From NCBI GenBank assembly GCA_012295275.1, contig CM022677.1, positions 15,748,001 through 15,812,000 on the forward strand: DNA of 64,000 nt, read 5' to 3'. Source of the stretch: Chrysomallon squamiferum. Its lineage: Eukaryota; Animalia; Mollusca. Of this stretch, positions 1 through 63,439 are shown piece after piece (within the stretch, counting starts at the first letter, position 1; every line of letters begins with the position of its first letter). The notes below the pieces were generated by a model. It made no database searches. It worked only from the letters and a program-made list of their open reading frames with translations, and had not been told where the DNA came from. Made by a program: the position numbers and the translations under genes.

Positions 1-2309
1 GTTGCTTGTTTGATTTTTAACATTTGTATCTATAATATGGCTTTTTAAACAGGAAAACTATCTCTTTTCATAAGCTTGTTATTTCATTTTCAGACTAAAC
101 TGAGTGAAGATTGTCTAGTATAATAAGTTAAAGATAAATGTGTAAGAAGAAAAATTATTACTACATTTAATAAACACTAAAAGCATACACCATCTCCAAA
201 ACAAAGATGCCTACACTAACTGAATAAATAATCATTTTTCACATATTTATTGTTTATCACATTGAAAGATCTCAATGACAAAAATTGTGATATCATTAAT
301 CTAAAATAACAAATAAATCACATCTTTAAGTAAAATTATAAGTAAATGCAGAATAAAAATGTACTTACTTTGACTTCTTCATCTGATAAGTTGGTGAACT
401 GAAATAAAAATATACAGTTGAGACAGTTGTCCTAATGGGAAAACAAATCTGGATATTGCTGATATTTTGCTAGTTAAGGAAAATGATGGATGCAACACGA
501 ACTGCTGAACACAAAACGTGTTTCCTGAACTAATTTAACTAATGTCTGCAATGACTGAAATAAGGAAATCTCAGTATAACATAAAATGTCAGTATAAATA
601 AAATGCATATACATGCAAAAACTCTACATGATTTAAATAAAGATAATTGAAAACTAGGGAAAAAAAAGTTAGAGAGAATGACCAATGAGCCATTTCAACT
701 GAAGGTATAACCAGACTTGCTAATCATAAATCATTGTCAAAAAGCCCACAATAAGGACAAATGATTATTTTTAAGAACTGTTAGTGAATCACAACAATTT
801 GACAGAACTTGATAGAATGAACTAAAAAATAATGTACAGTGACACATGATAACTATATCATAACAGATACCAATGCTTTTCAGTTCTAATAACAAAATGT
901 TAATGTCATTCTGCACTAGGTATGCGGATTCAGTCATTTTGATTACATGCTGCATTACTTTTTTGGAACACTTAGAACTGATTCTATACATCTAATTTTA
1001 GATTTGATTAAAAATATAAATTAATAATCTGGCTACAACATTAAAGTTATCCACAATAATAATCTTTTAATCCCAAAAGATAACGAGAATTCTAATTAAT
1101 TAATAATAATAAATTGCTAATGTTTTGAATGAGATGATATAATTAATTCATAAAAAAATATATATATCAGATTTGAATCCTGAATGAAATAATTCAGACA
1201 ATCGTATGATACTGCAACACTGACAAGGAAACTAATCACTTCTTTGTCATCTCATATATAAAGTTTTGACTGGTAGGAAACAGATTGTAAGGATTTACAC
1301 CTGCTTCTTCCTTAGAAATGGCAGTTTATAACATAATTACCACCAACTTGATGCCTATGCATTTGGAAGGTACATTTTTCAGGAATATCGTGGAATTTTT
1401 ATAAAACAGAATCAGGAAATGAAGTACTGGTAATAATTATTTAAAATTATATTTTTCTTCATTGAAACAAATAAAAAAATAAATAAAATAAAAATAAATT
1501 TAATATTCCTTCATTTCCCTGCAAAAATATAAATTAAGAACATTTAAAGATATCAAACAAACTACATAAGTATAAAATCTACTGATGTGTCTTTTGTCTG
1601 ACTTACATGAAAGGTCTTCCAAGCTGGTTAAGAAAATCCTCTGAAATGCTGGACATCACAACATCCAAAGTTTGTGCTGGTGATATGATAGCTATATTTA
1701 AACAACTATCTTGTTTCATGTGCAAGTCATGTTTTCTACTATTTAGCCAGATTTGTCTAAATAAACAAATATAAAACAAAAAGTATTTAAAAAAATCTGG
1801 TATAATTTTCTTATGTGATTAATTAATTTATCATAATTATAATTTTCTGCTATACACTGAAACAAACATAAGACTTCTTAACAGCCACCATTACAATCCG
1901 ATCTACTTACTATGTAATAATAGGTTGATCCTGTAACCAGACCAAAGAACACAAACATATCGTAATTACATTATTTATGTTTACTTTCCAAATAGTAAAT
2001 GTCAAGCTTCATTTTCTCAGTCATAAGTAGACTATTTTAATAATGGTTTGTTGGTAAGTGTTTCTTTCACTATACTGGGAAAATGAGATAGAAATGTATC
2101 AAAGAATTTTCTCAATCTGACGCCTATCAACTTAATAATAGATTTACTGGCTCAACAACTGTATTTTTTACCTATCCCAGACTAGGAATGTATGCTTATT
2201 TTGCATAATAAAATCTTTTGTGAGAACAAATTCATATATAAAGTTGACCAGATTCATATTTCAGCTTATAAAGGAAAACATGTATTGATCATTAACCTTC
2301 AGAAACTAA

Positions 2310-2376
2310 CTCATCATTTTTTTAACATCCAAACAGAACTTTGGTAGCATTTGGTGACTGGCCATTATAAGCCCTG
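2310..2376 (+). mobile_element. Terminal fragment of the hAT-like element family seen at 31192-32221
   Basis: aacagaactttggtagcatttggtgactggccattataagccctg matches the end of the 31-32 kb element, with CpGs lost. Confidence 0.65.
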
Positions 2377-2831
2377 CATTCATATGTACATATGTACTTA
2401 AACACATTACTATATTACTATTATTTATTATTATAAAACATATCCAGACCACTTACTTCAGAACAAGTAGTAGTAGTAATAATAATAAAATAAAAAAGGA
2501 GGAAGTAAATAAAACAAAACAAAATGTAAATAAATAAATTAAAATTAACAATTAGTAAATTTTAAGAAAAGAAGGGAAACTGAGAAGAGTTTTTGATCAC
2601 TTAAACAAGTAAAGCACTTCTACTTGCTTGCATCCTTCTTTTTTCATTCTTCCAGACTTGTTTTTAAGAACAAAACAAACTAGAACAGTTTAAAATACCA
2701 TTACACACAGACCCATAATTCAGACCATTGGTATTTATATTTGTCTATTTATCTGCCCATCAAACTCTAAGTAAATCATCACTCACACCATGTACATCCA
2801 AACATTCCTCTAAATCCTTTTCAATGCATCC

Positions 2832-2834
<3 letters not shown>

Positions 2835-2883
<49 letters not shown>

Positions 2884-2940
2884 ATATATATATATATATA
2901 CACACATACATACACATACATACAAACACACACACACACA
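2835..2940. repeat. Compound microsatellite (CT)n(TA)n(CA)n; representative of many CA, CT, TA, TAA and TCTA arrays in the window
   Basis: Direct reading of the sequence. Confidence 0.95.
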
Positions 2941-5527
2941 TCTATGTCTCTGTTTGTGTTAGAGTCTATATAACTACATACAAATCTATCTTTCTGTATT
3001 TCTGACCATTTATAACACAAGTTCACTCTCAATATTTAGCCCTACTTCTCTGATACACAAGCATAGGTACCTGCACTCTCTTATACATATACATGTGGTT
3101 ACTGCCAACTCACTAAGCTACATATCTACTTATCTATCAATGGTTTATCTACTTTATCTGTCTATTTGTCTTTTACATTAAATCTCCCTATCTACATTCT
3201 GTATATATGTCCATCTACAAACACTCTTATATATATATATATGCACATCCCCTCTGATTGGCCCTCAGAAATACACAATAAAACTTTCTTACACATGCAT
3301 ATACATTAACTCCTCCTTTCACGTTAAATTCACAGCCACTCCTCAAAAACACACAAGCACATTCCCCTTCACATACATACATACATTTCTGTATCAGGAC
3401 AATGTAGTCAACTTACATACCTACATGCCAACACCAATTTCCATACTGCCATATATACATGTACCAACTATCATTTTCTTTTTTGATCTATCTGTTCACA
3501 TTCTGATCCATCAATAAGCATCCATAAATCATGTCCATCTCAGCAGCTGCCTCCCTGCATAACTACCTTACAACCTCTGTCTTTCTGTATATCTGTCCAT
3601 TTATAACAAAAGTACACTCTTATTCACATACGTTCTAGCACATCAAACACATGTACCTGCACTTCCATATACATGTAGTTACCTACCTTCCTATCCATCA
3701 CTCTCTATCTGTCTTTGTATCTATCCATCAAACTGCTGAGTTATCTGTTGTATACACAAACCTACCTATCTACCTACCTATCTGCTTCTTCTGTCTTATC
3801 TAGTTTTCTTTTATCTTGTCCATCCATGCATGTACCAACACATAACCATAAACCAATCATCTACCCAACTTCCTGCCTACCTACATATCTAACTATGTCT
3901 ACAAACCTACATTACAACCTGTCTTTCTGTTTGTCCATCTAGAAACACTGTATCTACATAACTTTATATATTTTCTTTCACACTTTCCAAATTAGTTGTT
4001 ATTATCACTGTGTATCTTCTTCTCTATTAATTTAGCTATGGTCTGGCTTCTATCTGTCTGTCTTATGATTACTTATCAAGGCGACTGTTTCTCATGCAGT
4101 CTGTAATCTACATCTATGTATCAATCTATCATCTATCTTTCCATCTATCTGTTCATCTGTCAGTGTTTATAGACATTTTTAAAAGTTTTTATTGAAGTTA
4201 AAATAAACAATGTTTATCATTTAACCTGTTCTGTAATTCTATAATTCTTTAAAGTAAATATTTTGAAATCATCTCTCAAATTCAGTTATCAGTTATCAGT
4301 TACCTTTACCTTCATACTATTTTCTCTAATAAATGTATTTAAAAAGGGCACTTACCTGGAAGCCCATCCATATTTCTTCCTATCTACTGCGCTTCTTGTG
4401 TACAATAAAAGTTGATATAACCTTTACACCTGTTGGTTTTTAAAATGATTATACTCTTATACCACCAGAAATTTGTTAAAATAAGTTTTTATTTTTTATT
4501 GTGAATGAAACTGGTTTTGAAAATCAATATTTATATATCTTCCAATATTAATTTTCATATTGCATTCTTATTTATTTATTTTAAATTTTCTGAAATAATA
4601 ATAATAAATAAATAAAATAAAATTTGTTTGATGCCTACCTTGATGTCATTAACATTATTAATAAGTGAATATTTCTTATCAGCGAATTCAAAATGATCTG
4701 TTATCGTTCAATGGTAAACGAAGATTAAAACGTTTTTCTAGCAGACGCGAAGTGACGTACAAGTCGGAAATGAGTCTCGATTACGATATTAGTTTCACGT
4801 CATCCAAAAGAAAAAAGACTACCGTGTTTCAAACATTTCGGAGGCCAAGACAAAATAAAAACCTTTTTTCATTTTATACTCTTTAATACTGTTTGATCTT
4901 GTTAAAACATTAATCTCTTATTTCTTACTATCATTAGGCATATCTAATTATCACTGTAAGATTGTCGTTTAACTAACAGAAAACTACATTAATATCTCCT
5001 GCATTTTAACATTATTTTTAAAAAGTCTTCTGCTACCATTACAGCCGTTTATCAGATTATATATATATATATATATATAATACATTAGCTTACTTTATCA
5101 CATTCTGACATAATTTTCAGCCGATAACTTGAGATAACAAAACGGCAATTATCTTTGATTTACAAGCACCTGAGCCAAAAATTACGTGATATTTTTATCA
5201 AGAATTCGCGTCTATTGCAATCATAATATTAAAATAGATAGTGTTCGTGGGAAGTGATGTGATATTTTATAAGGCAATAAACATATAATCATTGAAGGTG
5301 AAGGATTATTTTAAGAAATATCTAGAAATACAGATTAATGTATGTTTGTATGTGTGTGTGTCTATCTAATCTGTCTATTTATCTATTGATAATTGTTTCT
5401 TTGTTTATAATGACGACAGTAATAATATCTGACGTAACTATATTAACGATAAAAACAACAACAACTACAATAATACTAATTAAAATGATAAACAAAATAA
5501 TAATTAATAACGAATACTGAAAAAAGG

Positions 5528-9449: not shown

Positions 9450-9490
<41 letters not shown>

Positions 9491-9494
9491 TTGT

Positions 9495-11344
9495 ACTTTC
9501 GGAAAAATGCGGGATGATTGTCGGTTTTTACGGATTTTTTTTTTTTTTTGTATTTGATGTTCGTAGATTGTCATCCAACTTTCGGAAAAATGCGGGATGA
9601 TGTTTATTAAAGCATTTCATTTTGTGAAGCAGACAGGTAGTACTATTTATTATTATTGTTGTTAATGTGTTTGGATTTTTTTGGTTTTATTTAAGTATAA
9701 TTTAAAAGTCACAGCGACATGTTTAGTCTTTAATTTTGTTTTAACAATCACTGATGTATCAGGAAAACATTTTGTGTGGCCATTAATTAAATTTGTTTTA
9801 AAAGAAATTGAAATGTGTAGCACACACCAAAGTAAACCCAGCACAACATCTATGTGTCAACTCACAGACGATTTTGTATTATTATTATTATTATTATTGT
9901 TATTTTTATTGTTATTGTTATTGTTATTTTTTTATTTATTTATTTATTTATTTATGATTGATTTTTTTAAAGATTTATGTTAAACTCCTAACTTGCTCTT
10001 TACATTATTAAATATATTTAAAATGTTTAAAACATATTAAAGTTTATAATGGGTGGGACCCAAAATGCTTTCATATTGTTTAAGCTAAATACATATAAAG
10101 CTCTATGTTAACATTAAAAACAAGTAAAGGTGAATAAAAAGTTAAGAAAAATATGATCAGGTTATTTCATATGTAAACACTGTAAAATATTAATAAAATT
10201 ATTTGTTATAATAATATTTAACACACACACACACACACAGATAATTTGTGATCATAATAGCAAAAGATATTAGTATATTGTACAGTTTCTAAGCACAAAA
10301 CACTACTAATTGAAGATTCCTTTTTGAAGTTTGTGTACATATTCCGTAGATGTCTCATGTAAATAATATGACTAATACTATGACATCCAAAACATTTACA
10401 TCTGTATCTATAGATAATATACCTGGTTGACATTAATTGCTTCATCACACCTATACCTATTACAAAAATGTTCAACTCGTACAGTGTAAACCTATGAATG
10501 TACAAGGTCTGAATTCTGTCAATTCTGTGTTTGTATAGTATGTGTCTGTGAGTCTATTTTAAACATTTCTAGTTGGTTTTGTTCTTACAAACAAGACTGG
10601 AAGAATTAAAAAAGAAGGATGCAAGCAAGGTAGAAGTGCTTTATTTTTTTGTGATAAAAAATAGTTCTGTTTCCCTTTGTTTTAAAAACTTTACTAATTG
10701 TCAGTTTTAATTTATTTATTTACATTTTGTTTTGTGCTGTTGTACTTCCTTCTTTTTTTATCTTCCTCTTATTATTGAGTTTGTTAATTGTGACTAATCC
10801 AGTTTACTTCCAAAATTGCTAAAATGGCATCTTGTTTTGCCAATTTAATTTTCTATTACTTTTATGTTTCATTTTTATTATTATTTTTTTTTTTAATCTT
10901 TATTATTGTTCATTTTCTTTTACGTTATGATCACACTGTTTAGGGAGACAGCATTATTGGCTACCATATCACTGAGAACACCGCACCCACCACCACAACC
11001 TCCACCAACAACCTAAGTGACAAAACTTGCTCTCATTGAAGCCAAATATTCTAGATACCTCCAGTGACAAGACAAAATCCATGACAGCAAATTTTGCTGA
11101 AAGATGCTTATGGATATATCAATGGTTTACATTCAGCATGGTCAGGAACAAGAAGGAAAGAGCAAAGCACCATTGAAGTCTGCTTTTTTGTGAAAACAAG
11201 CTGGTGCTGGTAAAAAGACTTCATCTGCTACGCTGTCAAACAAAACCACTTGGCAGATGACTGGATTGGCTGTGTGCAAAGACAACAGCCAGGAAGTTGA
11301 GCAGCAGGTGATGTCTGTGTGGCATGGTATGTTTTATTAGTGTA

Positions 11345-11412
<68 letters not shown>

Positions 11413-13050
11413 AAAAATATGCAAAATATGCAAAAAAAAGCATTTATCAGACAAATGTAGACTGATTAAAAAAATAAAAAGTATCGTGTTCATGTTGAAA
11501 TTATTAAAAACTTTGTTTACCATTGATGTTAAATATATTATGTAGGTCATTGCAGTATTGTTCAGGTGCTGTCTAGAAAGGTAATTTATGTTATGGAGAA
11601 GGATGAATCAGCTGTACAGAAACTGCAGACTGCACAATTCCAAGTTTTGAGTTTTTTTTATCTTATTTTTATTTCTTAGTAAAATACATTTTATAGTAAC
11701 ATCTCTTTACTGATTATAAAATAGCAGAATAATAATCACTTATTTACTATTTTGTTAATTATTTAAATTGTAACCATTATTATTATCATTATAATGATTA
11801 TTCAAGGTATATCAAAAATATCCCACACCCCTTTTTGTCTGAATAATCCAGTAAATGATACCAGTAAAATTTTAATTTTTATAATAAAAGAAACATAGTT
11901 ATTTATTTATAACATTTATTATTCTTATTTTTTTTCTTCAGAAAGCACATACAGCTCTAACTGATGTGCTGATGTTGGCTAGTGAAGCTGTCCAGCACTG
12001 AGGATAAAGTTTGTACTGCTGCCACTGGAAAAAAGAAACAACTGAACAGGTAAATTATTATTCTAAACCTGATGAAGTTTAATTTAATTTTATGTAGGAA
12101 GCTGCATTTTGTAAATATTATATCAGTAAGTACACATGCACATACATTAGTATCTTGTATAACACACTATATTTTATACCATCTACATTTCTGTCATGTA
12201 CATATCTCTCTGTCTCTTTCTCTCTCTCTCTCTCACTCACTCACTCACTCACTCACTCACTCTCACTTCCATTCATACAGACCTGATTATTTTGTTGTAA
12301 ATTTCTGTATTTTATAACAAAAGAAGAAGAAGCGTCATATTTTAAGAGTATTTTAAAAAGTTTAAATACAAGAAGAGCTAATTCTGTGAGCTCACCAAGG
12401 AGAGAAATGTCATCAATGAATATGGCAGAACAGGAACATCTGTAGAGGTTGTTGTTATAGTAGTAGTATTAGTCATTGCCATTTTGTAGTAATGTAGTTG
12501 TTACAGCATTAATAATAATACTACTTGTTGTAGTAATATTGTAAAATTGATCTTGGTGATGTTTTAGTGGGTGATGTTGTCTCAGGTTTAGTAATGTATC
12601 TTGTGAGACTGATGGTGATTAAAAAAAAGCTGGTTGTAGTGGTGGTAGTAGCAGTACCAGTTCTAATAGTTGTTTTTAGAGAAATGATAAATGTAACATG
12701 AAGAGTAGGTTAACAGCAGCAATAATAGTAGTAATAGTAGTCATAGTTGTTGTTGTTGTAATAATTATAATAATATTAGTATATAGAAATACAGGCATAG
12801 GAGTAATACTGAAAAGAGTAAAAAATATCACTTTTATTATTAATGGATAGTAATTTTAGTAAAAGCAGTATTATTTCAATAAAAGTAACCCCAGTTGAAT
12901 AAGGAATAACAATAAATATTAGTTATAGTAATGATGGTAATGAAAGTGGCATGTAGTGTTGCAGTAAATGTAGTAGTAGCAGTATTTTATTTATTTTACA
13001 TTTTTTACTGTATTTTATTTATTTATTTATTTACTCAAACTAGGCAGTGA
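9495..13050 (+). repeat. Diverged direct segmental duplication, partner at ~58775-61990; partial third copy at ~55830-56045 and inverted piece at ~2490-2697
   Basis: Colinear shared blocks, e.g. gaaaaatgcgggatgattgtcgg, tataatgggtggg, taggtcattgcagtattgttcag, gcacatacagctcta...ctgaacag|gt, acctgattattttgttgtaaatttct. Confidence 0.9.
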
Positions 13051-14130
13051 CCCACCAATGTGACTCTGACTCAGAGTTGTTCAAAGTTCTGCTGATGAAA
13101 AGCTCAATTTTGGTGACCTGGACATTGAAGCTGACCACGTCAGACTACAACAATTCTTAAGTTGGAGAGTGTTCCACCAGGTCACCAATCTCAACAGTCA
13201 AATATTAGGAGACTTGAAAAACTTGAACATGCTAAAACCAGGCAAAGAAAAACATTAAAATGAAACCACTTGGCAGACAACTGTGATTGCAGTGTGTGAC
13301 AGTGGCAAAGTCAAAATCCATGAAGTTCAGCAGCAGGTGACTTAGTTTACTTCCATTAGCATTGTTTTATTTCTTTTTAGCTTAAATTTGTACTAGGAGT
13401 AATCAAAACAGTCTCATTTTTAACTCACATGGCTTAAAGAACGATATTGAGGTATGTGTGAAATCAGTTCATAAAGAAAAGCTCATCTTGTTGAAGGTGT
13501 TTCTGAGTGAAAAATTCTTCTTTAGCTTTAATTATGTGATTGACATTCATCTTTATTTTAGACATATTTGTCATCACTCTAACTAAAATAGTTATATTTA
13601 AATTTTAATATTATTTTTAATATTTACTTTATTTTATATATTTATTTTTTAAAATACTGGCATTCAAAACTTCTCTGCATATTTATCATAAATTAATAGG
13701 ATCCATCAGCTATACATGTGACTCTCATTATATTGAAGAATCTAACTAGCTGAAGTAATTAGTTTAAATTTGGGATTAAATGCCTTTCTTTAGTTTTTAT
13801 TTATGAATTTGTTTTTGTTTATGAGAAATAATGCCTGCCAAAACAGTCTGCTAGATCATTATAGAAGTTCAAGATGAAAGAGGAAATAAAAGAGAGAAAT
13901 GTACTCAGTGGATCCAGATAAAACAAACTGTAAGCTGGAAACCATTTTGAGTTTGTGGCTAATCCAGCTTTACTTCCAAAATTGCTAAAATGTCATCTTG
14001 TTTTTCAATCTGTTTCTGGTTTTGCAGGTGATTTTGAGAAAAAAAAACTGAAGATGCCAAATTCATCTGATACTGATACTAGCCAGTCAGAAGAATTCAA
14101 TAAAACAGGGAGCTGTTCTGAACTAAGTGG
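10940..14130 (+). pseudogene. Decayed exons of an unidentified Lys/Arg-rich gene
   Basis: Splice-bounded, GC-richer segments (~10940-11307, 11942-12049, 13044-13336, from 14028) with stops; partly conserved in the 60-62 kb duplicate. Confidence 0.4.
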
Positions 14131-14199
14131 TATCGATATGTTTTATAATAATAAACAATAGTAATGTGTTTAAGTACACATGAACATTACATATGAATG

Positions 14200-14305
14200 C
14201 AGGGCTTGTAATGACCAGTCACCAAATGCTACCAAAGTTCTGTTTGGGTGACTGGGATGTTAAAATATTATATGGGTGACCTTTTTTTTTTCTGTAAGTT
14301 ATAAA
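14200..14305 (-). mobile_element. Terminal fragment of the same hAT-like family
   Basis: CAGGGCTTGTAATGACCAGTCACCAAATGCTACCAAAGTTC is the reverse complement of the element end at ~32085-32221. Confidence 0.7.
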
Positions 14306-14725: not shown

Positions 14726-14940
14726 GAAAGACATGATTCTGGAATCATCTTCATTTCTAAAAATATGGAGAAGAATATAAAGGTTACTTCAAACAGTTGA
14801 GATATCTACTGATTTAGACCAACATGGATTTTTCTTTCCAAAGGCAGAGAAGTTGTTGATATGTGGTATTTGTTGATTGATTGTTCTCCAAACGTTAACA
14901 GTGGATGATTCTGGTTAAAATGGAACAAAAAACTTCCACT
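14726..14940 (+). pseudogene. Isolated UPA-like exon, family copy 2
   Basis: tgtatctacag| then HDSGIIFISKNMEKNIKVTSN..; clear nucleotide paralogue of the minus-strand exon starting at 34131; its upstream intron matches ~2160-2410 inverted. Confidence 0.55.
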
Positions 14941-16445: not shown

Positions 16446-16451
16446 AGATAG

Positions 16452-16489
<38 letters not shown>

Positions 16490-16495
16490 CTATCT
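16446..16495. repeat. Perfect 50 bp palindrome AGATAGGTGC(AT)15GCACCTATCT
   Basis: Direct reading of the sequence. Confidence 0.9.
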
Positions 16496-17885: not shown

Positions 17886-17940
<55 letters not shown>

Positions 17941-20590: not shown

Positions 20591-22062
20591 TATAATATAG
20601 AAGGTTGGTGGATGTGAAAATTCCTGAAAGAATTCCTTACAGACTGAGTCTTTGATACTTTTCACAATGAGACACACTGTTTATTATTACCATCATTTTA
20701 ATTTCACATTTTACTGACAGGATTAGATTTATATTTTGACAGCCACATATATTTGTTATTATTATTAGTATTATTATTATAGTTATTGTTATTGTTATAA
20801 TTATTATTATTCTAAATCTTACTTTCAGGTTTGTTTATTTCTAGAGATCAGTGATCAGAACGTGCAGGAGGCCATATTGAGGTTAATATGTAATATCAGT
20901 TTATTCAACAAGATAATATGAAGTTATATTGGTTTAATTATCAAAATTAAATAAAAATAAAATAAAATAATTTCTTCATGAATAATTGTTTAAAATGAAA
21001 TTATAATAGTAATTTTAATCATTATTTTGATCTCAGACTTTTTACATTATTAAACAATGTTATATGATTAATTAAACATGTTAAACATCATAAATGTAAA
21101 TCTTTGTAATAGTTTAAATTAAAGATTCTATATTTTATAATATCAATGTCTGTAGATTGTCCTGACATTGTTTCAAGAAAAAACATTTAGTTAAATTATG
21201 TTTTATTTAGAAATCTAGAAATGTACACTATCTCAATGTTTCAAATATTTGGTAAAAAAAATAAAATAAATAAAGATTAAAAATATTTTTATTAATAATT
21301 TAGAAATACTGATCTCTGTACTGTTGTCAGCTTCCATCATATGATTTTTACATCAAGAACAAAATAACTAATATTTACTATTGCAGAATTTTCAGTATCC
21401 ACACACACTTCAACATTTTACCATTAGTAAACAAATATAGCTATATATTAATGTTTCTATTTCTTTTTAAATAATATTTACTATTTTAGAATTCTCAATG
21501 CCCACATATATTTCAACATGTCTGAAAGATTTCACAATGGTGTTGTTGTTGTGTGATGCTGCTGTCAACACTCCTACCTATGTCAGCAAATACTACTGGG
21601 TAATGTAATTATAACAATTTTACTATTTGAATTAGTTTGAACATTTAAATAAAGACTGTTTTATTACCAGTATCAGGAATTTGAAATTTACTTAAACTAG
21701 TGTCGTAAAATATTCTTAACAGAAGTGTCCCAATAGATTGTTCTGTAAATAATAGAAAGTACAAAGTATAAACAGTTAATAACACTATATTATTGCACTT
21801 CATTATTGACATGTTAAATTATTAAGTACAGAGATAGAGCTAGTTCATAACAGTATACTGTTATAACTTTATTAACATGTTTGTTTATAAGTAGTTATGT
21901 TAACAACAAAATTTAAGATGATAATCAAGGACTTGCACATGTGAAAATATTTAAATAATATTTGTTTCCTGGTTTTACAGGGATCTTTGGATTTTTAGTT
22001 TTCCAGCTAAAATAATGTGGAAGATTCTAGAAAGTCACCCAGATTTCAGTGTCAAAAACCAG
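20591..22062 (+). pseudogene. Decayed exons, family copy 5: end of a ZU5-like and start of a UPA-like domain
   Basis: From 20591 EGW/DVKIPER../ILFTMRHT; 20829-20881 LFLEISDQNVQEAILR; 21490-21599 ILNAHIYFNMSERFHNGVVVV*CCCQH; 21981-22062 GIFGFLVFQLK. Intron phases are compatible across the last three exons. Confidence 0.45.
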
Positions 22063-24357: not shown

Positions 24358-24758
24358 TTCATTTCTGTTGGCGATGACCGTCCAGTTCTTCAACATCAAC
24401 TCAAACACATCGAGAGTCAGTTTGCTGTTCATCTTATCTAGAAGAAATATCACATTCCTTCCTCTCTACAAACATAAATACAATTATTATTAGTAAATAC
24501 TGTCTTAGAATGACTTAGAAAATATCCTTTTGACCTGAAAAACAAAAATATTTGGAGATTGTGTTGAATGGTTTAATGGTTCAAGGATTTTCTGTCTGAA
24601 ATGTTTAATTACGTGTTCACACATGGATAGGAAGACACATTTCAATTTATTTTGTAATGGAGCCAGAAACAGTCTGGTGGAAGCACTAATGTGATTTGAT
24701 TCTGTGACTACCCACCCTTCATACACTGACTTACACATTGACTAGTTTGATAATCATA
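24358..24758 (-). pseudogene. Decayed exons, family copy 4: UPA C-terminus and death-domain-like exon
   Basis: 24758-24613 reads VYEGWVVTES/NQITLVLPPD. 24465-24358 is an open 108 nt AG/GT exon, RGRNVIFLLDKMNSKLTLDVFELMLKNWTVIANRNE (MLxxW motif; resembles the 1398-1301 exon). Confidence 0.45.
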
Positions 24759-25434
24759 CTGAAAACACAGCAGTCAGTTTAATTCATAGTTTACAGTTTT
24801 CTCTCTAACTTTATTCCAGTGATTAACCCCTGTGAAATAAAATACTTGATAACCAATTTGACTAGAAAATAAAATAAAATAAAATATAATAAAATAAGGA
24901 AAGAAAATAATTAGGAAAAGTAGCTAAAAAATATTCATAAATCACGTTTTTCCTCGATATAATAGGTATTGAAACAGACCTATTATTTTACTAATTATTT
25001 ATTTATTATTATTTTTATTATATATAAATTAACAGAATTTAACTTTAAACACTGTAAATGTTTTAAAAAAAGATCAAAAATTAAAACCTTATATCACATA
25101 ATCCTAATTTTGATTTAGAATTTAACAATTTATAAAACTGTTTATTTCTTTAAAAAAAATTATTCCAATATCTGTAGAAATTAATGGTGGTTTAAGACCC
25201 AGCACAGACACAATGCAAGATCAATTATTAATGGAGCCCAGTGCGGAATGGGAAACAGGGTAATTTTTCAAGGGTAGAGTGACCTCTGGGATCATTTTAG
25301 ATTCTTATTTATTAAAACTAGTTGTAATTAAAACATTTATCAATTTAAATACTGATAAATTAAAAATTTAACAAACTATTAATCATATATATGTATATTA
25401 TAAGTTTTAATATACTTCTGTGTTATATTTACAG

Positions 25435-27180
25435 ATGACTGAACTTCCACTGCAGTCCATGTTGTCCACAATGTTGATCATGTGAGTTCACGTGACAGAA
25501 TTCTCACATTGTCCCCATGTTGTCTGAGCAGAATGTTCTCTACACACCAAAGGTTTGAAACTGCTTTTTTTATTGGTTTCAAAGATATAATTAAACTAAT
25601 ACTATATAAGAAAATAATTAAAACAGATTAGTTATTATTAACAAAAATCTTATATACAACATCCTATGTTTTGGAAATTAAAAAAAAAAAAAAAAAAAAA
25701 AAGCAAAGTGAACTCTTTATTATTAAAATCCAAGAAAAAAAGGCATCCAAAATATTATTTTGTTTATTTATGGTGAACAATCTTGTTAATTATGATGTTT
25801 ACCACAAAACTGAAGAAACTCACTGATTATGAACACTAAAAATTATAAACTTCTGTATTTTAAAAAAAATAACAGATAAGCAGATAATTTTCAAGAAATA
25901 TCTTAATGATGATTATAAGATGTAAAATGTATTTATTATGACTAAATAATTTTTAATTTTTAATACTTTAGGTAACTTTTAAATAATAATTTGCTATCCT
26001 TCCCAATGATAAACGTTATATTTTTTTTTTAGTAAATCAATTTTATTTATTATGGTTATCAGTGATAAGTTTTGTTTACTACTTTGACAGGATACACAAT
26101 CCCTTGCTGACCAGAAAAAGTTCTGTCAGGCCAAGGATGACTAGGCTTGTAGTACAATTCAGTGAAGAACAATCATTTCTTCAGTTCTTGGTGTTAAAAG
26201 AAATTTGTACCAACTCAGAAACTCAGATGAATTCATGTGTTTGAAATCAGATGCTGAGTATAATGGACAGGTAATTCAGTTTACAACTAGATTTTATAAA
26301 CTGTAAAATATAAATCATTTAATGTCATATGAGAATATTTTTAATATTATTATCTTTATATATAATTTTCTTTTTTTAAATAATGGTATCTCTAGATGCA
26401 AAGAAAAAGACAAACCATATCATTGATATAGCAGTTGGGAGAAAAGGACTACTTTAGAAAATGTATCTTCAAAAATTAATACATAAAGATTATTGATCTT
26501 ACTTGTTGTCAATAGAATATATTAATTTATTTACTTAATTAAAAGTAAAATAGATGTTACTGCTTTAAAAAAGAAAAAATATGTATTATTATAAAAATAT
26601 TAATCAAGTATCTGAGTTGATTTTTCAAACTTGTATTAAACACACATTTCCCCAGCCAGTGAAAAAAAAGAGGTCCAACAAGAACTGTTTAAATAAATAT
26701 AATTAAACTTTATTTTATTTCAATTAAATTGACTGTACTTATTATTGGTTGAAAACATTACTTCAGATTCAAATGATAAAATATAAAATTATAGTGGGTC
26801 TTGTTAAAATGTTTGAATGTAAAATTTTATATTTCAGAAAGCTATTTACAAGTATTGTTATCCACTGAATCTAAATGACTTGTCAAGTTTGCCTCCAAGT
26901 TCTTCAAGTTTTCTGACTGTACTGATCTAAGTAAACAGAAGACAAAACATCTCCAAAGTAAATATAAAGAACTGAATAACTGGATAAAATTCAAAGCTTT
27001 TAGGAAATTCCACACCAAAATAACATTTTAAAAACATTACTTGTGTGAATCAAGGACTGTTCTTATTGAAGAATTTATAATATTGCGATACTGAATTTAG
27101 ATTCAAAGCTACAATGTTGTTCATGAAAGTTGTGATCAGATATACTCAGTATACTGAATGTTTGTACCAGACACAGCACC
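25435..27180 (+). pseudogene. Decayed exons possibly encoding Ulp1/C48-like protease and PHD finger (transposon accessory gene?)
   Basis: Exon 26091-26270 ends ISSVLGVKRNLYQLRNSDEFMCLKSDAEYNGQ; ~27050-27170 reads DCSY*..*IQSYNVVHESC..MFVP; catalytic residues not seen. Confidence 0.3.
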
Positions 27181-30032: not shown

Positions 30033-31442
30033 CAGCTGATAGATTGGCTGACACAGAGTTACAGAACATATTTTAAAAATTCCACATTTTCTTGACACAA
30101 GGAAGTAAACTGGTTCTGGCTGGAGTGGGCGTTTGGAATGTGAACTTACTGTTCAAAGTTACAAAACAAATGGGAGACTGCAGCAGGAAATGAACTGGGA
30201 AGATGCTGACCAAAACAGACTATACCAGCTGCAGAAATTACAATTTTACACTTGTGTACCAAATTGTTATAACTTTTCTTTCTTCTTCCACAATGTGTAG
30301 ATGCTCAAATTGCTCTCCAAACACTCTCATTTTCTCTTCTGCTGGAAGACTGGACGTTTGCTCTATCTTCTCACTGTTAGCAGAGATCTGTTTTGGGACA
30401 ATAAAAAGGACATTTATGTTCCACAGATTGATAAATGATGACCTAAAAAGGATTAAAAATCAGTGTCAGTGACATTAAACTGACATGTCAAACTGAATAA
30501 AAATGAAAACAAAATTTAAATTAACAAACAAAAACATACTGCAATATAAAATCAATTAATCTAAGAATTCATAGAATATCCTTAAAATTATATTTACTCT
30601 TTTAAATATGTTTCAGACCAGATTCCAGTAAATATCACTTAATCTGTTACAAAAATAACACATTATTCAAATTAATTATTACCCTATGCAATAGCAGTCT
30701 GTTGATACTCCCTCCAAAGTGAAGATTCAGTCTCACATGCAGACAGTATTTTCAAATCACTCACTTTGAATACTGTGACAGACTCAGACAAAATTAGTCA
30801 TAATCTTGAGGAAAATGCTGCAGAAATTGAACTATCCTTTCTCTGTCTTCACATGTAAAAGTGTGTGATTTAATTTTCTTCTGCCAGATTTCTTTCTCTC
30901 TCACAGTTACCCCACTCAGTCTGCAATGCTGTGAGTTTGTTCTAAATGCTGTAAACAAACAATAAAATATATAAGCAGACACCAGTAACCACACACACAC
31001 ACACAAATGTCCTCTATAAAAATGATGGAGAAATTACAAATTACCTGCTGCTTAAATAAAAAAAAATACTAATGAAAAACCCATACACGTTCTCTTTGCT
31101 TTGTTCATTGGAGACGTGCCATATCCTTTCAGCTGCTGAAAGTTTTAACTGTCTTTCAAGCTGTAGGTTATGCAGGTCATGTCAGTAAGCACAAGGCTCG
31201 AAATTTAAAAGAAATTATCTCTTTTTTTTCTATAAATTATAACATATTAATAATTTTATTTATTTCACGTAAAAGGTTTGTTCGTAGTTCAAAAGTTGAA
31301 AGTATCGGCTTACCTTAATTTGTCAACATCTAAAAAGAAATACGAAAATTCTTTATTAATTAAAATAGCCCCACAAATTTAGTCCTAGTTATACAAATCA
31401 GCTGGTATGACATTTTCAAACAAACCTTGATAAAAATGGAAT

Positions 31443-31492
<50 letters not shown>

Positions 31493-34400
31493 TTATAGTA
31501 TTATACGCTTGGATTTTTCAAAAGAAACAAAAATTAAAAAGCAACATGAAATGACAGTGAGTAAAGTTTAGCGTGTAGCAAAAATATGAAAATCAATGAC
31601 TTTACTCTATAAAATATGCAGGCGTTCAACTTTTCTTTTTATTATTTATTATTTATTTCTTTATTTCTTTTATTTTTTTCTTTTTCTTTTTATTATTATT
31701 ATTTTTTTCTTTTTCCGTGTAAATAATCCTACCGGAATTGAAAACGAAAAACAACAGCAAATACAAGGTTATAGAGTTATCTTCCATGATAACTTGTTCC
31801 GTTAACCAACCGATAATTATTTGCGTAACACTCAAAAAGTTCGCTAAATGTATTCGTTGGCGTCAATTTAGCCAATTAAAGGTGGAATTTAAAAAGAAAA
31901 ACGATAGCAAACAATTAGTTACAAAGCTATAGTCTATGATAACTTGTTCCGTTAACCAACCGATAATCCTTTAACGTAGTGTTTATAATTAGATATTGGC
32001 AAATAATGTAAGCCGATATGTCCAACTTATGGAACTATCGGCAATCGTTTTATGTGAAATAAATATTTGCGATAAAAATATTGTGTTATAACTTATAAAA
32101 AAAAAGGTCACCCAAATAATATTTTTTGGGGCGACTAACTATAATAGTTCTAACATCCCAGTCGCCTAAACGGAACTTTGGTCGCATTTGGTGACCTGGC
32201 GACTGGCCATTTCGAGTCCTGCATAAGAATCTCTCATATTAAGAAATCTGTTGGTACTATAAACTGTCATTTTAATACTGTTTAAATATTTCATTCAGAA
32301 CATGACAGTAATTGTATCTCAGAAAAATGTCCACAGATCTTGGATATAGTCACTACTGAGCCACCACGTGTAACATGTACTGTAACAGATGACATAGATC
32401 ATGACCCCATTGTATCAGCCGTAACCCAGCATTAAATCCTCGTAATCATCTCCCCGATAATGAAAATCAATTTTGTAAACCGTAAGTGAGAATGTTGATC
32501 GAGTGATCACTTCTCACCTTCCATTTACTTGTGGTCCTTTTATTGAGACAGAGCGGGATGTTACAATCTTCTAATATGTGAATACTTTTTTTTATTATTA
32601 GAATTATTTTTTCTTATCTTCACTGACTATACAGCGTATCCCATACACGATAAACAAATATAATTCTTTTCATAATTTCTTTAGTACTTAACTAAACGAA
32701 ATAAATGAAACCGAAAACTAAATCTGAAAATATATCATTATTATTATTTTTATTTTCCTTTTTCAAACTGTTTTGTTGTTGTTAATGTTGTTACGATTAT
32801 CGTTATATTCATTCCTATTATTAATGGACAACAGTTATTTCCCTTAGACTATGAAATTGACTAATTATTATTATTATTATTATTAGTGGTAGTAGTAGTA
32901 GTACTAGTAGTACCAGTAGTAGGAGTATTTATATTTTTGTATTCTTAGTTTATTTCATATATTTAAAATGTTTCTTTACTATTCAGAATAAAAATAAAAA
33001 TGTATATTTGTTACGAAATTCCGTTTTGATATGTGAAAATTTGTGTATGTCATTTATTATGATTAGAGAAAGAGAGATTTGGGTTTCACTACTATTAAGT
33101 TTGTATGTTTTCATAAAAATGTCACTTCACTGTAAAAAAGTTTCAAATACATGTAAATACTGTTTTTATGCCTTTTCATACTGACACGTTATTTAAATTT
33201 CACAGATATGATGATTTCTAATGTGGTAAAATGTTTAATTAAGTTTGTGTGTGTGTGTGCGTGAGTCTGTGTCTTTCCTCTGTCTTTAATTTTTGTTTGT
33301 TTGCATTTTTATTGTTGATATTATTGCTAACATTATTATTGTATTTTTATTACTATTTTTATTATTTTTGTTATTGTTGGTTAACTTTGCTGTTCCTTTT
33401 GCTGTTGGTTAACTTTGCTTTAGGTAATTTTGTATGGAGAGAAGAAAGAGCTAGAGAGAGAGATAGATAGAAAGACAGACAGAGAGAAAGACAAAGAGAC
33501 ACAGAGAGACAGACAGATAGACAGAGAGAGAAAAGAGAGAGTCAGAGAGACAGAGTTAGAGAGGTAGAGAGAATGGAAGAGAGACAGAAAAAGACACCTA
33601 TCTTTCTATCTAACTTTCTGTTTATCTACTGAGCCTGCTGATCTGCCTATATGTTTAGTTATTTATATATCTCTCTGTCTGTCCTCCATCAAGCTCTAAG
33701 TAAATGCCTCCACTCTTAGTGGATTGATCAATCCATCCATCTGCACACACAAACACACACACACACAAAAACACACACACACACATATTTGTCTGTCCAT
33801 ATACATTACATTCCATCAATAACAATCCATGAATCACCTATTCATCTTCCCTAAATAAATATAACTACTTTACATAATCTGTCTGTCTGTGTTATTGTCC
33901 ATTTATAACTCTCATTCACAATTTCCATATTTAGCTATGCTTATCACTGGCACACACAGTGTGAATAATCAAACAACACTGACATTGTTAACAATTTCTC
34001 TGACTGGAAACTGCTTTCGAAAGCTAAATCCATAATTAATCTATATCAGTAGATATCTCAATGTTTAAAGTAACCTCTGTATTCTTCTCCATATTCTTGT
34101 AACTGAAACTGATTCCAGAATATTGTCGTGTCTGTAGATACAATAATAAAATTTAATAGAATAATTATTTAGAAGTATTTTTACATTGTGTTTAATTGTC
34201 TGATAAATAACAATTATTTAAACAAAAATATAGATCTATTAAAAAAAAAAGTATCAAAATTGTAAATTTTACATTCTGGTCAAATTAAAATAACAAATAT
34301 GTCTTTGAAATCTAAATTCATAAAGATAACTGAAATATTTTCATATTGTAAACAAGAAGAATGCATTGATTAGATCAAAATATGTTAAAGTTAAGCAATA

Positions 34401-34591
34401 CAAACATAAGATGAAAATGTAATAATAATAATAATAATACAAATACCACACTAATACTTCTCAAAGCTGAAATCCATAAAATTGTGAACACTCCTCTGTA
34501 TCTTCTTGTACTGTAAAGGTGAGAGATGAGATCTGAAGAACTCTGTCTTTGTCCAAGTCCTTAAAATAATACAAAATCTGACAGTATCCAC
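30033..34591 (-). pseudogene. Decayed multi-exon gene, family copy 3: UPA-like, death-domain-like, RING1-like and UEV-like exons
   Basis: 34591-34458 GGYCQ..QISSLTFTVQEDTEECSQFYGFQL; from 34131 RQYSGISFSYKNMEKNTEVTLNIEIS; 32256-32222 + 31191-31045 LQLERQLKLSAAERIWHVSNEQSKENVYGFF; 30948-30683 KLTALQTEW..RNLAEE/TCEDR..D*FCLSLSQYSK*VI*KYC(P)ACE; 30387-30033 HLPSSFPAA/PICFVT..LPCVKKMW. Confidence 0.6.
31192..32221. mobile_element. Non-autonomous hAT-like element (~1030 bp) inserted in an exon of copy 3
   Basis: Ends CAAGGCTCGAAAT ... ATTTCGAGTCCTG; candidate 8 bp TSD agtaagca/cataagaa (5 of 8 match); internal direct repeat atgataacttgttccgttaaccaaccgataat at ~31786 and ~31936. Confidence 0.75.
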
Positions 34592-56989: not shown

Positions 56990-57758
56990 GTCAAAACCGC
57001 ATGATTCATTGAGACCAACGTGATACACCGTTTTAGACAGAGAGCTTTTTCTAAAGATTAAAATAACATAAAACTGGAATATTGTTTTTTTTATTACAAA
57101 TGTTAATGGTCTATCAGTTGTCAGAGGATAAACAGTCTGTCATTGATGACTGCGTTTTTTTGGGGGGGGTTGTGCCTTTTTTAGTTAGGTTTTTTTTTTC
57201 GTATTTCTTTGTCTGTCATGGCCTCCAAGTTTACCATTAATTGCAGAATCTCTTCTTTAGCAGGCTTAAGAATTAAAAGCGGATTTTTGATATTCAAATG
57301 ATGTGGCTGTCGTACTTTAATAACGTCTTCACCACAACAGAGAGCATCGAAAGTTGTTTTTTCTTTAACTCTGCCATTTTTTCTCTTTCCTTTCCAAATT
57401 TTGATATACTTGAATACTTTTTTCTTCTGTTCGGAGCACATTCTAGTCCACGAGCTAACATTAACTGTTCATTTGTCAAATTTAAAACTTGCTCTATCTG
57501 TCCCGCTAATTCTCTACCGTGTATGTCACGAAGTTCTAATCGAGATACGATGTGAATTTTTTCTGTTCTTACTTTTTCGAGACTTATCGTCCTCCAGATA
57601 TGCATATATTTGTATTTTTTCATTTTGTAGGCAAGGCGACCTAACTGATAACAGTCTTCTGCTGATAATCTCTGTATATATCGTTCATATATATAAAACC
57701 TGCTAATCTTGTCGCATTTAATTTGTACATGTCTTGAAGTCGAAACACAGCTGCAGAC
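56990..57758 (-). pseudogene. P4HA: Intronless prolyl 4-hydroxylase alpha pseudogene fragment
   Basis: Across frameshifts: AAVFRLQDMYKLNATRLAG / LSAEDCYQLGRLAY..Y..W / EKTTFDALCCGE..KNPLLILKPAKEE..MTDKEI, colinear with P4HA1 ALLRLQDTY, LTAEDCFELGKVAY, YEMLCRGE, NPKFILAPAKQE. Weak below 57190. Confidence 0.88.
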
Positions 57759-57828
57759 AAAAAAGAAAACAAAAACACTCCTCAAGAAAAAAAATATAAC
57801 AGATTAAAATGTGCATTACAGCTGTCAT

Positions 57829-58710: not shown

Positions 58711-58774
58711 CAAGACGTTAATACTGGAACAATTTTGTTTTTATTTATTTTTTTATTTTTGGGGGGGATTGTTT

Positions 58775-59023
58775 ATGCAGAAAAATGCGGGATGATTGTC
58801 GGTCTTTATGGATTTACGTTTTTATTTAATGTTCGAAGAATTTTCTACAGAATTGGTGTAATCGCATTAAAACAGTCGTTTAAAGTATTTCATTTTGTGA
58901 AGGAGACAGGTATTATTATTTATTATTATAAATGTTAATGTGTTTGGATTTTTTTCGTTTTATTTAATTATAGTTTAAAAGTCATAGACAACTGATGGCA
59001 GCCATATTATTTGAGAACAATAT

Positions 59024-59054
<31 letters not shown>

Positions 59055-59296
59055 TAATTTTTTCAAATAACGACACTCGATTAATAATTACATTCACCAG
59101 TGGTTGTACTAATGTGAACAACATAAACAACATCATGATGTATCTGCAAATTTTGAGTGGCCAGTAATGAAATTTGTTTTAAAATAAATTGACTTGTGTA
59201 GCACACACCAAAGGAAACACCAAAACAACTCACAGAGAATTTAAAATTATTATTATTATTATTGTTATTGTTATTGTTATTGTTATTATTTATTTT

Positions 59297-59332
<36 letters not shown>

Positions 59333-61332
59333 TTGAAATAACTAATAAAACTATTAAAAGAAAATATGCTAATTTTGTTTGACAGGTCAGTTTATTTATG
59401 ATTTATTATTTTTAAAGATTTAGGTTAAATTGCTGACTTGTTCTATAATTATTAAACATATTAAACTTTATAATGGGTGGGTCCCTAAATGCTTTCATAT
59501 TATTTAAGCAAAATACCTGTGTAGCTCTATGTTAACACTAAAAACAAATAAAGATGAATACAAATTTAAGAAATACATGACCAGGTTATTTCATATGTAG
59601 ATGATGCTATAAAATATTAATAAAATTATTTATAAAAAAAATATTTAACACAGACAAATAAACACTTAAATAATTTGTTATCCTGTTCTTTGTTTCTCTT
59701 CTTTTCTTAATGGTGAATTTTAATTTATTTATTTACACTTTGTTTTGTTTTGTTGTAATTCCTTCTTTTTCATCTTCTTCTTCTCTTATTATTATTACTA
59801 TATTTTATTATTATTATTATGTTTTATTTTTATTATTATTTTTTTGTAATCTTTATTATTATTATCCATTTTATTTTTCATATCATTACTAATAATTGTT
59901 TATTTTTTATGTTTTCTAGGTCATGTGGAGAAAATGTTCCAAATGAATTTAAAGAATGGTTCTGTAAAAAATCAGATGTGAGTGAAATATTTTATAAATT
60001 TCTCATCCAGCTACACAGTCATTGATCAGTATCATACTGTAGAGTGCAAGTGCTGCTGGAATACTATAATATGATATACCGATGGTTTACATGCATCAAC
60101 AGGAACAAGACGAAAAGGGCAGAGCACCATTGAAGTCTGCTTTTTTGTGAAAACAAGCTGATGCTGGTAAAAACACTTCATCTGCTATGCTGCAAAACAA
60201 AAAACTAGGCAGACGACTGCGATGGCAAAAATAACAGATTTCACCTGCTGCTCTGAGAATGAAGCTGGATGTGAAGATAAAGAAAAGAGAGAGAAGAAAA
60301 CAGAGGCTGTAGCTGCAGCAGAACAAGATGAGACAGAGACTTGGGAAGGCAACATTCATAAGTGATATCTCGCCACATTGACAGTTTGAATGAACGGGCT
60401 AGTCCTGTACCTGATTCAGATAACAGAGTGAGACCAATAACCCAGGTCCCAGTCCCCTACAATCATAAAAATCCAGGCCATTTTCATGAAAAAGGATACA
60501 AGAGACTAATGATAATGTGAGTCAACAGTCTGGTGCCAAGTTATGTCAGACCTCTGTTAGAATGTTTTCAGAAACCTCTTTACAGTGGTAGGGTATGTTC
60601 GTTTATTAGTTTATATATATACATATATATATTTATGTGTGTGAGAGAGAAATGTAGATTGTTAAATATTTTGTAGGTCATTGCAGTATTGTTCAGTTGC
60701 TGGCTAGAAAGGGAATTTATGTTATGGAGAAGGATGAATCAGCTTAGATATAAAATAAGTTTTATAGCAACAGCTCTTTACTGACTGTAAAATAGCATAA
60801 TAATAATAATTTGTTTCCTGTTGATTTGTTAATTATTTAAATTAATACCATTATCATCATTATCATTATAATGATTATACAAAGTACATCAAAAATATCC
60901 CACACCCTTTTGTGTCTGAATAATTTGTACCAGTAAAATTTAAATTTTAATAAAAACAGAAACATTATTTATTTATTTATAACAGTTTATTATTTTTATT
61001 ATTTTATTTTTATTTTTTTCAGAATGCACATACAGCTCTAATTGATGTGCTGATGTTGGCTAGTGAAGCTGTTTCAGCAGAAGGTGCTGTCCAGCACTGA
61101 GGATAAAGTGTGTACTGTTACCACTGGAAAAGAGAAAAAAACAACAAAACTGAACAGGTGAATTTGAGTTTGTTTTCTTATGTATTTCTCATTATTCTGA
61201 ACCTAAGGCAGTTTAATTTAAATTAATGTAGGAGGTTGGATTTTGTAACATGTACCAGTAAGTACACATGCACATACATTAGAATCTTGTATCATATACT
61301 GCATTTTAATTCATGTTTTCTCTCTCTCTCTC

Positions 61333-61375
<43 letters not shown>

Positions 61376-62094
61376 CTTCCTTTCATATAAACCTGATTAT
61401 TTTGTTGTAAATTTCTACATTTTAAAACAAAAGAAGAAGCAGCATCATATTTTATGAGTATTTAACATTTTTTTAGCTTTCCTGTTACCAGATGGAACTG
61501 TCAGCCTTCACACAGTGTCACTGTTCCTGTGATAACAGACACACTAAAATACATTGGAGATGGATGTACTGTAGCTGTTGTCTATATTTATGTTGTCTGC
61601 AGTCTCTCAATTTTCATGGTTTGTTTAATAATGTTTGTAAACAAAATAATGAATCAGGTTGTTAAATATATGAGTCTCAATAACTAGTTAATCAAGAAAA
61701 TTCATATTATAATATTAGTTCTGGTTTTCTTTTTTGTTTTTGAATATGATATGTATGTAAGTATTTTGTTCTCTCTCTCTCTCTCTCTACAGGAGTAATA
61801 ATGTAATTTTAGTAATAGGAATATTATTTCAATAACAGTAATCCTAGTTGAATAAGAAATAATAGTAAATAGTAATTATAGTAATGATGGCTATACAAAT
61901 AGTATAGTAGTATTGCAGTAAATGTAGTATTTTATATTTTTTACAGTATTTTGTTTATTTATTTATTAATTTATTTACTCAGACTAGGCATCCACATATC
62001 TGACAACTCTTGTCCAATGTCAGTAATGTACTAAACTGAACAAGGAGCAGCTCAAGTCTCCAGTAGAGTTGAAGTATTTGGTGCTGTCCAGCAG
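58775..62094 (+). pseudogene. Second copy of the 9.5-13 kb block with decayed Lys/Arg-rich exons
   Basis: Exon-like segments ~59921-60587, 61023-61157, 61989-62094 with stops; colinear with 9495-13050. Confidence 0.5.
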
Positions 62095-63050
62095 GTATTT
62101 AATTACATTATTCATTATAAACCTTTCCATTTTATTTCAGTTTTAAATAATTCTATGCAAAATATTTTCTCTTATACTGAATTAAACCATGCATTTGAAA
62201 AGATAATACCTTTGTATTTTTGTAAAATGATGCACTGAAAATGAATAGAATCAATGTAATAATTTGCAGGACAGCCTAATAGAGTAGTGAGCAGAACATT
62301 TGTTCAAATTTGTAATTTGATGTTATTAATATCTCATTCTAATCTGAAATCCATACATGTAATACTTTACGTGGGCTAAAGATATTTACATTATTTTGAA
62401 ATTTATTAGACGGATGGAATTTTGGTGGATTTGAAAGGTTGTAATTTGAAAGATGCATAAATTGGCTTGAAAGATTTAGCTTCTTTTGTTATTTTGTCAT
62501 ATGCATGTTTAATGTTTTCTTTGTTTTAAATACATTTTAAAAATACCACTGTGATTCATTATTGAACTGTTAGCTGAATGCTAGGATAATTTATAAGACA
62601 AAATATATTTCATTAATGGCAAAATTTAAATTACATTAAAGTGGCAGGAAAGAATATTACAATTAAATGTTTTAATTAATCAAATAATTTGTTATTAAGA
62701 ATTGTTAAAGGTTACTTACTGTCTAATACAATAGCTGTATAGGTTAAAAATGTTTACTTAATATTCCTGACAGTCTTCTTAAACTGGTCTAAAAGTCTAA
62801 AACACAGTGTAAATATCAAATTTTACCAAGTTACAGAAGTATTCAAATATATTAAAACATATTTTCATAATCTCTTTTATTGATGTATTGCTATTTTAAT
62901 CCTTTTATATAAAAGTTAAATGTACATGGAAAAAATAAAAAAATGTGGATTAAAACTTTTCTTGCTAAGAGAGTGAACTGCAGTTAGAGCTGACAACAAA
63001 AATACTACTTTTATGATTAGTTTATTAATGAATATCATATTTTGTTGTAG

Positions 63051-63439
63051 GATCCTAGACAACAGATTCAAGCTGCCTTAGCCAGCACTTCAGTTGAAAA
63101 TGATGTAAGACCCATTTTCAGGAGAGGTTCACTAAAGCACCAGAATGCTATTACATCACAGTCTTCCCTGTCCAGAGAAAGCTCAAGACTTTCAAGAGAA
63201 AATCTGTCTGAAATGTAATTTGAATTTTGATAACTCAGTGATCTTCAAGAAACTACATTGTCAATGTGATCAGAACATCCAGTGTACACATTGTACTTCA
63301 TAGCAGCTTGCACTGTTTTTATCATTGATCTGTGCTTGGTTATTCTAATTTTTCTCACTGAAAGAGGAATGGAGATTCATCACTGCTATGGAATGCCATC
63401 TTTGTAAATCAGCTAAAATTAATGTTATAGTGCATAGAG
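63051..63439 (+). pseudogene. Family copy 6: exon with death-domain-like end plus an eight-Cys HOIP-RING1-like finger
   Basis: AG/GT exon: DPRQQIQAALASTSVENDVRPIF, then in one frame 63205-63405 CLKC..LHCQC..CTHC..LKEEWRFITAMECHLC with two stops. The exon end (tgcatag..|gt) resembles that of 30948-30683. Confidence 0.6.

Follow-up and report, generated by a model that had tools for sequence, protein, structure and literature searches.

Proteins built on the ZU5-UPA-death module include PIDD1, DTHD1, UNC5, UNC5CL and the ankyrins, and none among them is known to have a RING tail. A 64-kb stretch of Chrysomallon squamiferum DNA (contig CM022677.1, positions 15,748,001 to 15,812,000), called the window below, had been read as holding about six decayed copies of a gene in which this module is joined to RING and perhaps UEV domains. 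The nature of these exon-like relics is considered here from the 64-kb window itself, public sequence collections and read contigs of other samples.

In the available part of PMC9334734, Aplysia has one HOIP gene, LOC101849805, and not an expanded death-domain fusion. Oyster inhibitor of apoptosis proteins (IAPs) of the BIRC2/3-like and BIRC11 types have a BIR-death domain-RING architecture and belong to an expanded invertebrate family, according to the accessible portion of PMC8917759. Excerpts of PMC8195603 describe invertebrate expansions of death-like and TRADD-N proteins with fast-changing architectures, fusions to UPA-ZU5 and to TRIM E3 domains, and retrotransposons nearby. The excerpt of PMC11874512 describes no ZU5-UPA-death-RING fusion, and a whole-word search of the literature, supplements excluded, gives no paper joining ZU5, death domain, UEV and RING; nor does any title listed in broader searches point to this architecture. 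An example might still be contained in the source data to PMC8195603.

Duplicated exon and intron blocks

The relics are probably partly duplicated pieces of exon and intron that appear to decay free of selection, and the dead gene copies they come from likely number three or four. Neither an intact homologue nor a spliced transcript turned up in the public collections and read contigs. The evidence begins with the exon at 14726. Positions 14698-14843(+) and 34158-34014(-) are 82% identical (blastn), and the flanks of the 14726-type and 34131-type exons align too (score 796, null 398±24). In frameshift-aware comparisons of 25 segments, amounting to 300 pairs, only this pair is clear (z 24; runner-up 3.8). 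Exon 34447-34591 also resembles exon 14726-14864 (DNA score 166; null 103±13, max 131) and has the same donor end. The first two exons of unit 3, 34447-34591 and 34000-34131, are thus more likely a single exon copied in tandem than successive parts of a string of domains.

The similarity extends into the introns. Blocks of unit 1 within 2158..2717(-) are collinear with unit 2 blocks at 10539-10774, 14114-14250 and 14596-14672 (83%, 85% and 75%, respectively, by blastn), and all three lie in gene orientation upstream of 14726. A further block of about 3.6 kb lies upstream of 14726 and again upstream of 63051. Three GC-richer exon-like pieces that are related to one another, 13044-13337(+), 11090-11330(+) and 60060-60460(+), lie in or adjoin this large duplicated block and have no family match.

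These copies show decay as well as duplication. Over the first block shared by 14726 and 34131, the 12 mismatches fall 3/5/4 over the codon positions, and codon changes number 0-2 synonymous vs 7-9 nonsynonymous depending on the frame; position bias is absent in every frame, as expected under neutral decay. Related sequences are also common in other samples, compared over 14660-24900 only, where two DNA and two RNA runs yield hundreds to thousands of contigs, many at 80-95% identity and most below 95%; these RNA contigs cannot show transcription, and copy number cannot be read from the depth. In three runs, five or six contigs each diverge at 14871, which makes it likely that the genome holds more copies of the 14726 exon. 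Of the 222 joints in this region 15 are listed, and none of those is of the GT-AG type; the joints in RNA contigs also occur in DNA contigs. Nine of the 11 listed runs contain part of 20500-30450, with at most 30% of its words. Duplicated blocks, evenly spread substitutions and related contigs together lend support to the initial annotation where it called the cluster decayed and locally duplicated.

Its count of copies fares less well. The strand and order of 14726 are shared by 20591-22062, and those of 34591-30033 by 26300-24358, so each of these pairs may be taken as one unit, which would reduce the six copies to three or four. The GG..GFQ exons, which were said to be common to copies 1 and 3, are not recovered as homologous (z 0.4; DNA score 201 vs null max 205), and the ISFS motif of copy 1 comes out of a run of pyrimidines closed by CAG (2095-2075) that looks intronic. 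The 18 pairs that follow from the same scheme, 14726/34131 aside, give z from -0.7 to 2.7. As for the cluster of paralogues, the 14726/34131 exon and the intron blocks uphold it in part, and the helical and Cys-rich exons compare at chance level. Several homologous disabled copies are thus on record for the 14726-type exon and the shared intron blocks, not for the 3′ exons.

Most of the segments named as exons do have the look of exons: splice-like ends, CpG-poor surroundings and, collectively, a shortage of stops, in segments that were chosen by eye. An AG acceptor and a GT donor on the claimed strand are found at 1607-1756(-) in unit 1, which also has a single open frame, and at 369-554(-), 34447-34591(-), 30033-30442(-), 24358-24465(-), 20829-20889(+), 21490-21599(+) and 63051(+). 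When the window is scanned for segments of raised GC content bounded by strong AG and GT sites, 61 candidates emerge, many of them outside the named units. They include, on the minus strand, 1607-1756, 369-554, 34447-34591, 30033-30442, 30683-30948, 24613-24829 and 25433-25601, and, on the plus strand, 20829-20889, 21490-21599 and 63051-63214. Summed over 21 segments, the cost in stops and frameshifts on the claimed strand is 24 vs 37±4 in shuffles (p ~0.003, inflated by the choice of segments and strands by eye); on the opposite strand it is 35.5 vs 35.8, which is no deficit. At GC edges, located automatically and blind to splice sites, the claimed strand has 29 splice-like motifs and the opposite strand 19 (79 edges), compared to 11 and 12 in control blocks (63 edges).

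The window is AT-rich (GC ~29%) with many microsatellites; its introns, a prolyl 4-hydroxylase-like fragment, a Gypsy remnant and a Tigger/pogo transposase are features of animal DNA. In base composition, the observed/expected ratio of CpG is 0.03-0.3 in the 1-kb bins around most named segments, compared to about 0.5-1.4 over 35-59 kb; the exceptions are 4356-4472 (0.87), 34000-34591 (0.68) and 20591-20900 (0.47). An excess of TpG/CpA accompanies the depletion. One dispersed repeat has kept its CpGs at 32097-32226, in a CpG-rich block, and lost them at 14158-14290 and 2326-2413, in CpG-poor blocks, a contrast that points directly to germline methylation in patches. Such uneven CpG loss would suit an invertebrate whose gene bodies are methylated.

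The likely history behind these observations starts with an intron-rich gene in germline-methylated DNA, which, judging from the CpG-poor blocks, would have lost its CpGs. Pieces of it, chiefly the 14726-type 5′ exon and its flanking intron, may then have been spread by local duplication and inversion, since blocks 70-93% identical occur in both orientations. The copies would have gone on to accumulate stops and frameshifts while transposons came to lie among them, and such relics would yield no working protein.

Several findings weigh against this reading. The 3′ exons, helical and Cys-rich, have no similarity to one another as DNA, as protein compared with the whole window, or in the 300 pair tests, while identity in the 5′ parts is 75-85%; the units may therefore stem from more than one gene. 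Taken singly, none of 26 segments differs from its shuffles at p<0.05 when read on the claimed strand. The excess of that strand at GC edges is slight, and two of the four blocks lack it (1 vs 1; 12 vs 12). Some of the shared blocks are dispersed repeats. One could also see the window as a patchwork in which pseudo-exons of separate origin lie among copied intron sequence and remains of transposons, with one short multi-copy exon-like repeat; the domain motifs would then be patterns read into decayed DNA rich in TG/CA. This seems unlikely to us, even though only one pair in 300 is clear, because units 1 and 2 have a collinear intron running into the same exon position and the collective stop deficit is specific to one strand. 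The mosaic draws further support from two key segments that have equally good other readings (26091-26270 on the plus strand; 63051-63214, open in another frame), and from 24689-24846, an inverted copy of 22066-22258, the DNA just upstream of the Gypsy reverse transcriptase (RT). In other genomic copies, moreover, contigs join 24419-24568 to Gypsy DNA. Against it, 24330-24900 does not match Gypsy integrase with a two-sequence profile (best p 0.21-0.33); one single-sequence comparison gives p 0.007.

Domain identity of the relics

The proposed ZU5-UPA-death-RING(-UEV) architecture found no significant match by profile, sequence or structure, the outcome that the initial annotation had itself named as refuting it. 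Pfam scans of 87 translations give no ZU5, UPA, Death, RING, IBR or UEV/UBC domain; the same scans did find Gypsy RNase H, the integrase zinc finger and the Tigger domains. PDB sequence searches with the relic translations return nothing relevant. When the 63052 exon and two alignments of the 14726-type exons are run in word-seeded searches of protein databases, the candidates number 23, 31 and 529, but not one reaches E<=10; a HMMER search with the 63052 exon against 1.84 billion representatives gives 0 at E<=0.001. Atlas searches reach at best 0.83 and 0.76, which is chance level. Exact look-up finds 0 of 10 open stretches, the DNA pattern of the shared exon has 0 matches in metagenomes, and 26063-26299 has 0 of 5 candidates in viral contigs. 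An AlphaFold model of 26063-26299 made without an alignment has a predicted local distance difference test score of 52.7 and no Foldseek match, and is too poor to inform. In whole-window profile searches, spliced and unspliced, the named exons do not rise above shuffles.

Profiles of our own, splice- and frameshift-aware, were built from prokaryotic homologues that Pfam models had picked out. Endozoicomonadaceae supplied 44 death domains and 30 RBR regions, archaea 26 UEV-like sequences and bacteria 4 ZU5 sequences. The death-domain profile is negative in all of 12 regions at p<0.05, including the three candidate units (p 0.69, 0.36 and 0.81), a further point against an ancestral gene with a death domain; in leave-out simulation with 14 relics it recovers 14 at 10% substitution, 9 at 20% and 5 at 30%. 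The RBR profile, whose bacterial seeds are not of the HOIP type, recovers 10, 9 and 6 of 10 at the same levels and picks up the zinc finger at 41200-41520 as a positive control (p 0.003). It gives p<0.05 in one of eight regions (63040-63450, p 0.013) and in two of eight opposite strands (p 0.010 and 0.020). No region of 11 has p<0.05 with the UEV profile (21380-22070, p 0.85). For 20591..22062 the p values are 0.36 for death, 0.16 for RBR and 0.85 for UEV. With the ZU5 profile, built from only four sequences, 3 of 11 regions have p<0.05, the best being 0.007 at 360-600, and 24358-24758, where ZU5 had been placed, has p 0.15. For UPA, seed sequences were found in 0 of 63 genomes, and the 14726-type exons, alone or aligned, have no Pfam or PDB match; the pieces are 30-45 residues long. 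RING2 with its catalytic Cys and LDD likewise has no Pfam or PDB match, and nothing appears beyond the nominal one at 63040-63450. Over 63051..63439 the RBR p of 0.013 stands beside a FYVE match of E 0.038, neither being significant after many tests. Power on short unspliced relics is limited, so these negatives weigh against the domain calls yet may miss very decayed or atypical domains. In the Endozoicomonadaceae genomes themselves, eukaryote-type death domains occur in 16 of 63, with several tandem copies in some proteins, and IBR/RBR in 22 of 63.

By eye, 1607-1756 with 1240-1354, 20602-20889 and 30683-30948 fit what we take to be the pattern of death-domain helices, and 700-991, 26070-26300 and 63051-63439 fit what is presumably that of HOIP RING1 or the RING1-IBR linker; the tools confirmed neither. 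These fits are one reason to consider that the units are old paralogues of one ZU5-UPA-death gene joined to a HOIP-like RING1(-IBR), perhaps with UEV, whose living protein would nucleate death-domain complexes and itself ubiquitylate the recruited partners. The nominal p values of 0.013 (RBR) and 0.007 (the four-sequence ZU5 profile) add to them, as do the oyster IAPs, which in the available part of PMC8917759 combine a death domain and RING in one chain. We regard this descent as improbable, given that the Pfam, PDB, protein-database, Atlas and fold searches are all without a match and that opposite strands score as well with the identical RBR profile. In unit 1 the ZU5-like 360-600 is at the 3′ end, which is the place that the initial annotation gives to RING/UEV, and the death-like reading over 1607/1354 requires a change of frame at the splice. 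The Cys-rich exons are also unlike one another (z 0.6-1.1 in the frameshift-aware test).

There is in addition a plain source for the Cys-rich readings. In six-frame translations, CxxC occurs 1.11 times per 1000 residues in CpG-poor DNA and 0.60 times in CpG-rich DNA, so it is about twice as common by chance where CpGs have decayed. For this reason, a zinc finger read from a pseudo-exon in AT-rich, methylated DNA needs the backing of an intact homologue. The piece 26070-26300(-), which at first seemed by eye a convincing HOIP-like exon, was set aside; the tools were unsupportive, and a plus-strand exon, 26091-26270, fits equally well.

To return to the decayed duplicates, the ancestor of the three or four dead copies may have been an invertebrate adaptor of the PIDD1/DTHD1/UNC5CL type, with UPA and a death domain; this is a tentative guess from motif patterns.

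Transposons and other features of the window

Coordinates of the relics, the duplicated block and the transposons are collected in Table 1.

Table 1. Positions of relics, duplicated DNA and transposon remnants in the window
Feature	Position	Strand	Remarks
Unit 1 relics	369..4472	-	4356-4472, ~1990-2074, 1607-1756, 1240-1354, 700-991, 369-554; no family match
Segmental duplicate pair	9455..13046 (upstream of unit 2) = 58733..61990 (upstream of unit 4)	+	blastn pieces 70-93%
Unit 2, 5′ part	14726..14864	+	multi-copy exon-like relic; 82% to 34014-34158
Likely unit 2, 3′ part	20591..22062	+	relics near 20602, 20829-20889, 21490-21599, 21982-22062; splice-like ends
Ty3/Gypsy pol remnant	22086-24327	+	RT; RNase H, E 1.5e-11; integrase zinc finger, E 2.9e-10
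Relics beside Gypsy remnant	24358..24829	-	24613-24829, 24358-24465
Two extra exon-like pieces, absent from the initial annotation	25433..26300	-	25433-25601, 26070-26300; no Pfam/PDB/fold match
Unit 3 relics	30033..34591	-	34447-34591, 34000-34131, ~31100-31200, 30683-30948, 30033-30442
Tigger/pogo transposase remnant	49132-50600	+	HTH_Tnp_Tc5, DDE_1; frameshifted
Unit 4 relic	63051..63439	+	164-bp open Ser/Arg-rich exon (63051-63214) or longer broken Cys-rich exon

The Gypsy remnant has many stops and frameshifts and is 38-58% identical to L183. Its homology stops at 24327, and a two-sequence profile gave no extension, so the suspicion that 24358-24758 is the antisense of the Gypsy integrase core is not borne out. 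A 34-nt inverted repeat (22107-22140 and 24767-24800, 88%), weakly extending to ~190 nt, flanks the remnant, which is unusual for a long terminal repeat element. The inverted repeats 16679-16752 and 17241-17306 lie around the highest read depth of 14660-24900, are also abundant in RNA contigs, and likely mark a very high-copy miniature inverted-repeat transposable element.

At 41026-41509(+), a Lys/Glu-rich stretch is followed by a zinc finger, which we take to be PHD-like (Pfam gave no PHD match); its flanks are duplicated at 36484-37275, and it is probably a transposase tail. Two minus-strand segments, 57297-57803 and 44645-44935, are 89% identical, and the first matches the substrate-binding TPR domain of prolyl 4-hydroxylase (E 9.5e-6).

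Comparison with known systems

By eye, the relics resemble the ZU5-UPA-death module of PIDD1, DTHD1, UNC5, UNC5CL and the ankyrins in having beta-strand-like and then helical exons, a death-like hydrophobic spacing and a Trp. They differ from PIDD1, DTHD1, UNC5, UNC5CL and the ankyrins in that neither Pfam nor PDB gives the window a match to ZU5, UPA or Death, our death profile is negative and all units are broken. The likeness to HOIP/RNF31 (LUBEL), also seen by eye, lies in 26070-26300, where a CP..C motif, a helical linker and an aromatic-W-x-x-x-C motif follow one another as RING1, linker and IBR do; by contrast, the window has no IBR or RING match in PDB or Pfam, and a RING2/LDD region was not found in it.

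It is doubtful that the window is the graveyard of an expanded invertebrate family fusing a ZU5-UPA-death scaffold to a HOIP-like RING1-IBR, with intact members elsewhere in the genome. If it were, one chain would both nucleate a death-domain complex and ubiquitylate it, and a direct fusion of a PIDD-like scaffold with a LUBAC-like ligase would be added to invertebrate immunity. As it stands, the locus is an ordinary cluster of decaying duplicates of little significance. The TRADD-N expansions, as the excerpts of PMC8195603 present them, are defined by TRADD-N, and they differ from the window, where the only TRADD_N match in Pfam is at chance level (E 0.1). Molluscan IAPs, in the portion of their description available, carry BIR and not ZU5-UPA, with no BIR match in the window by Pfam, and they come close to the proposed fusion in placing a death domain and a RING E3 in one chain.

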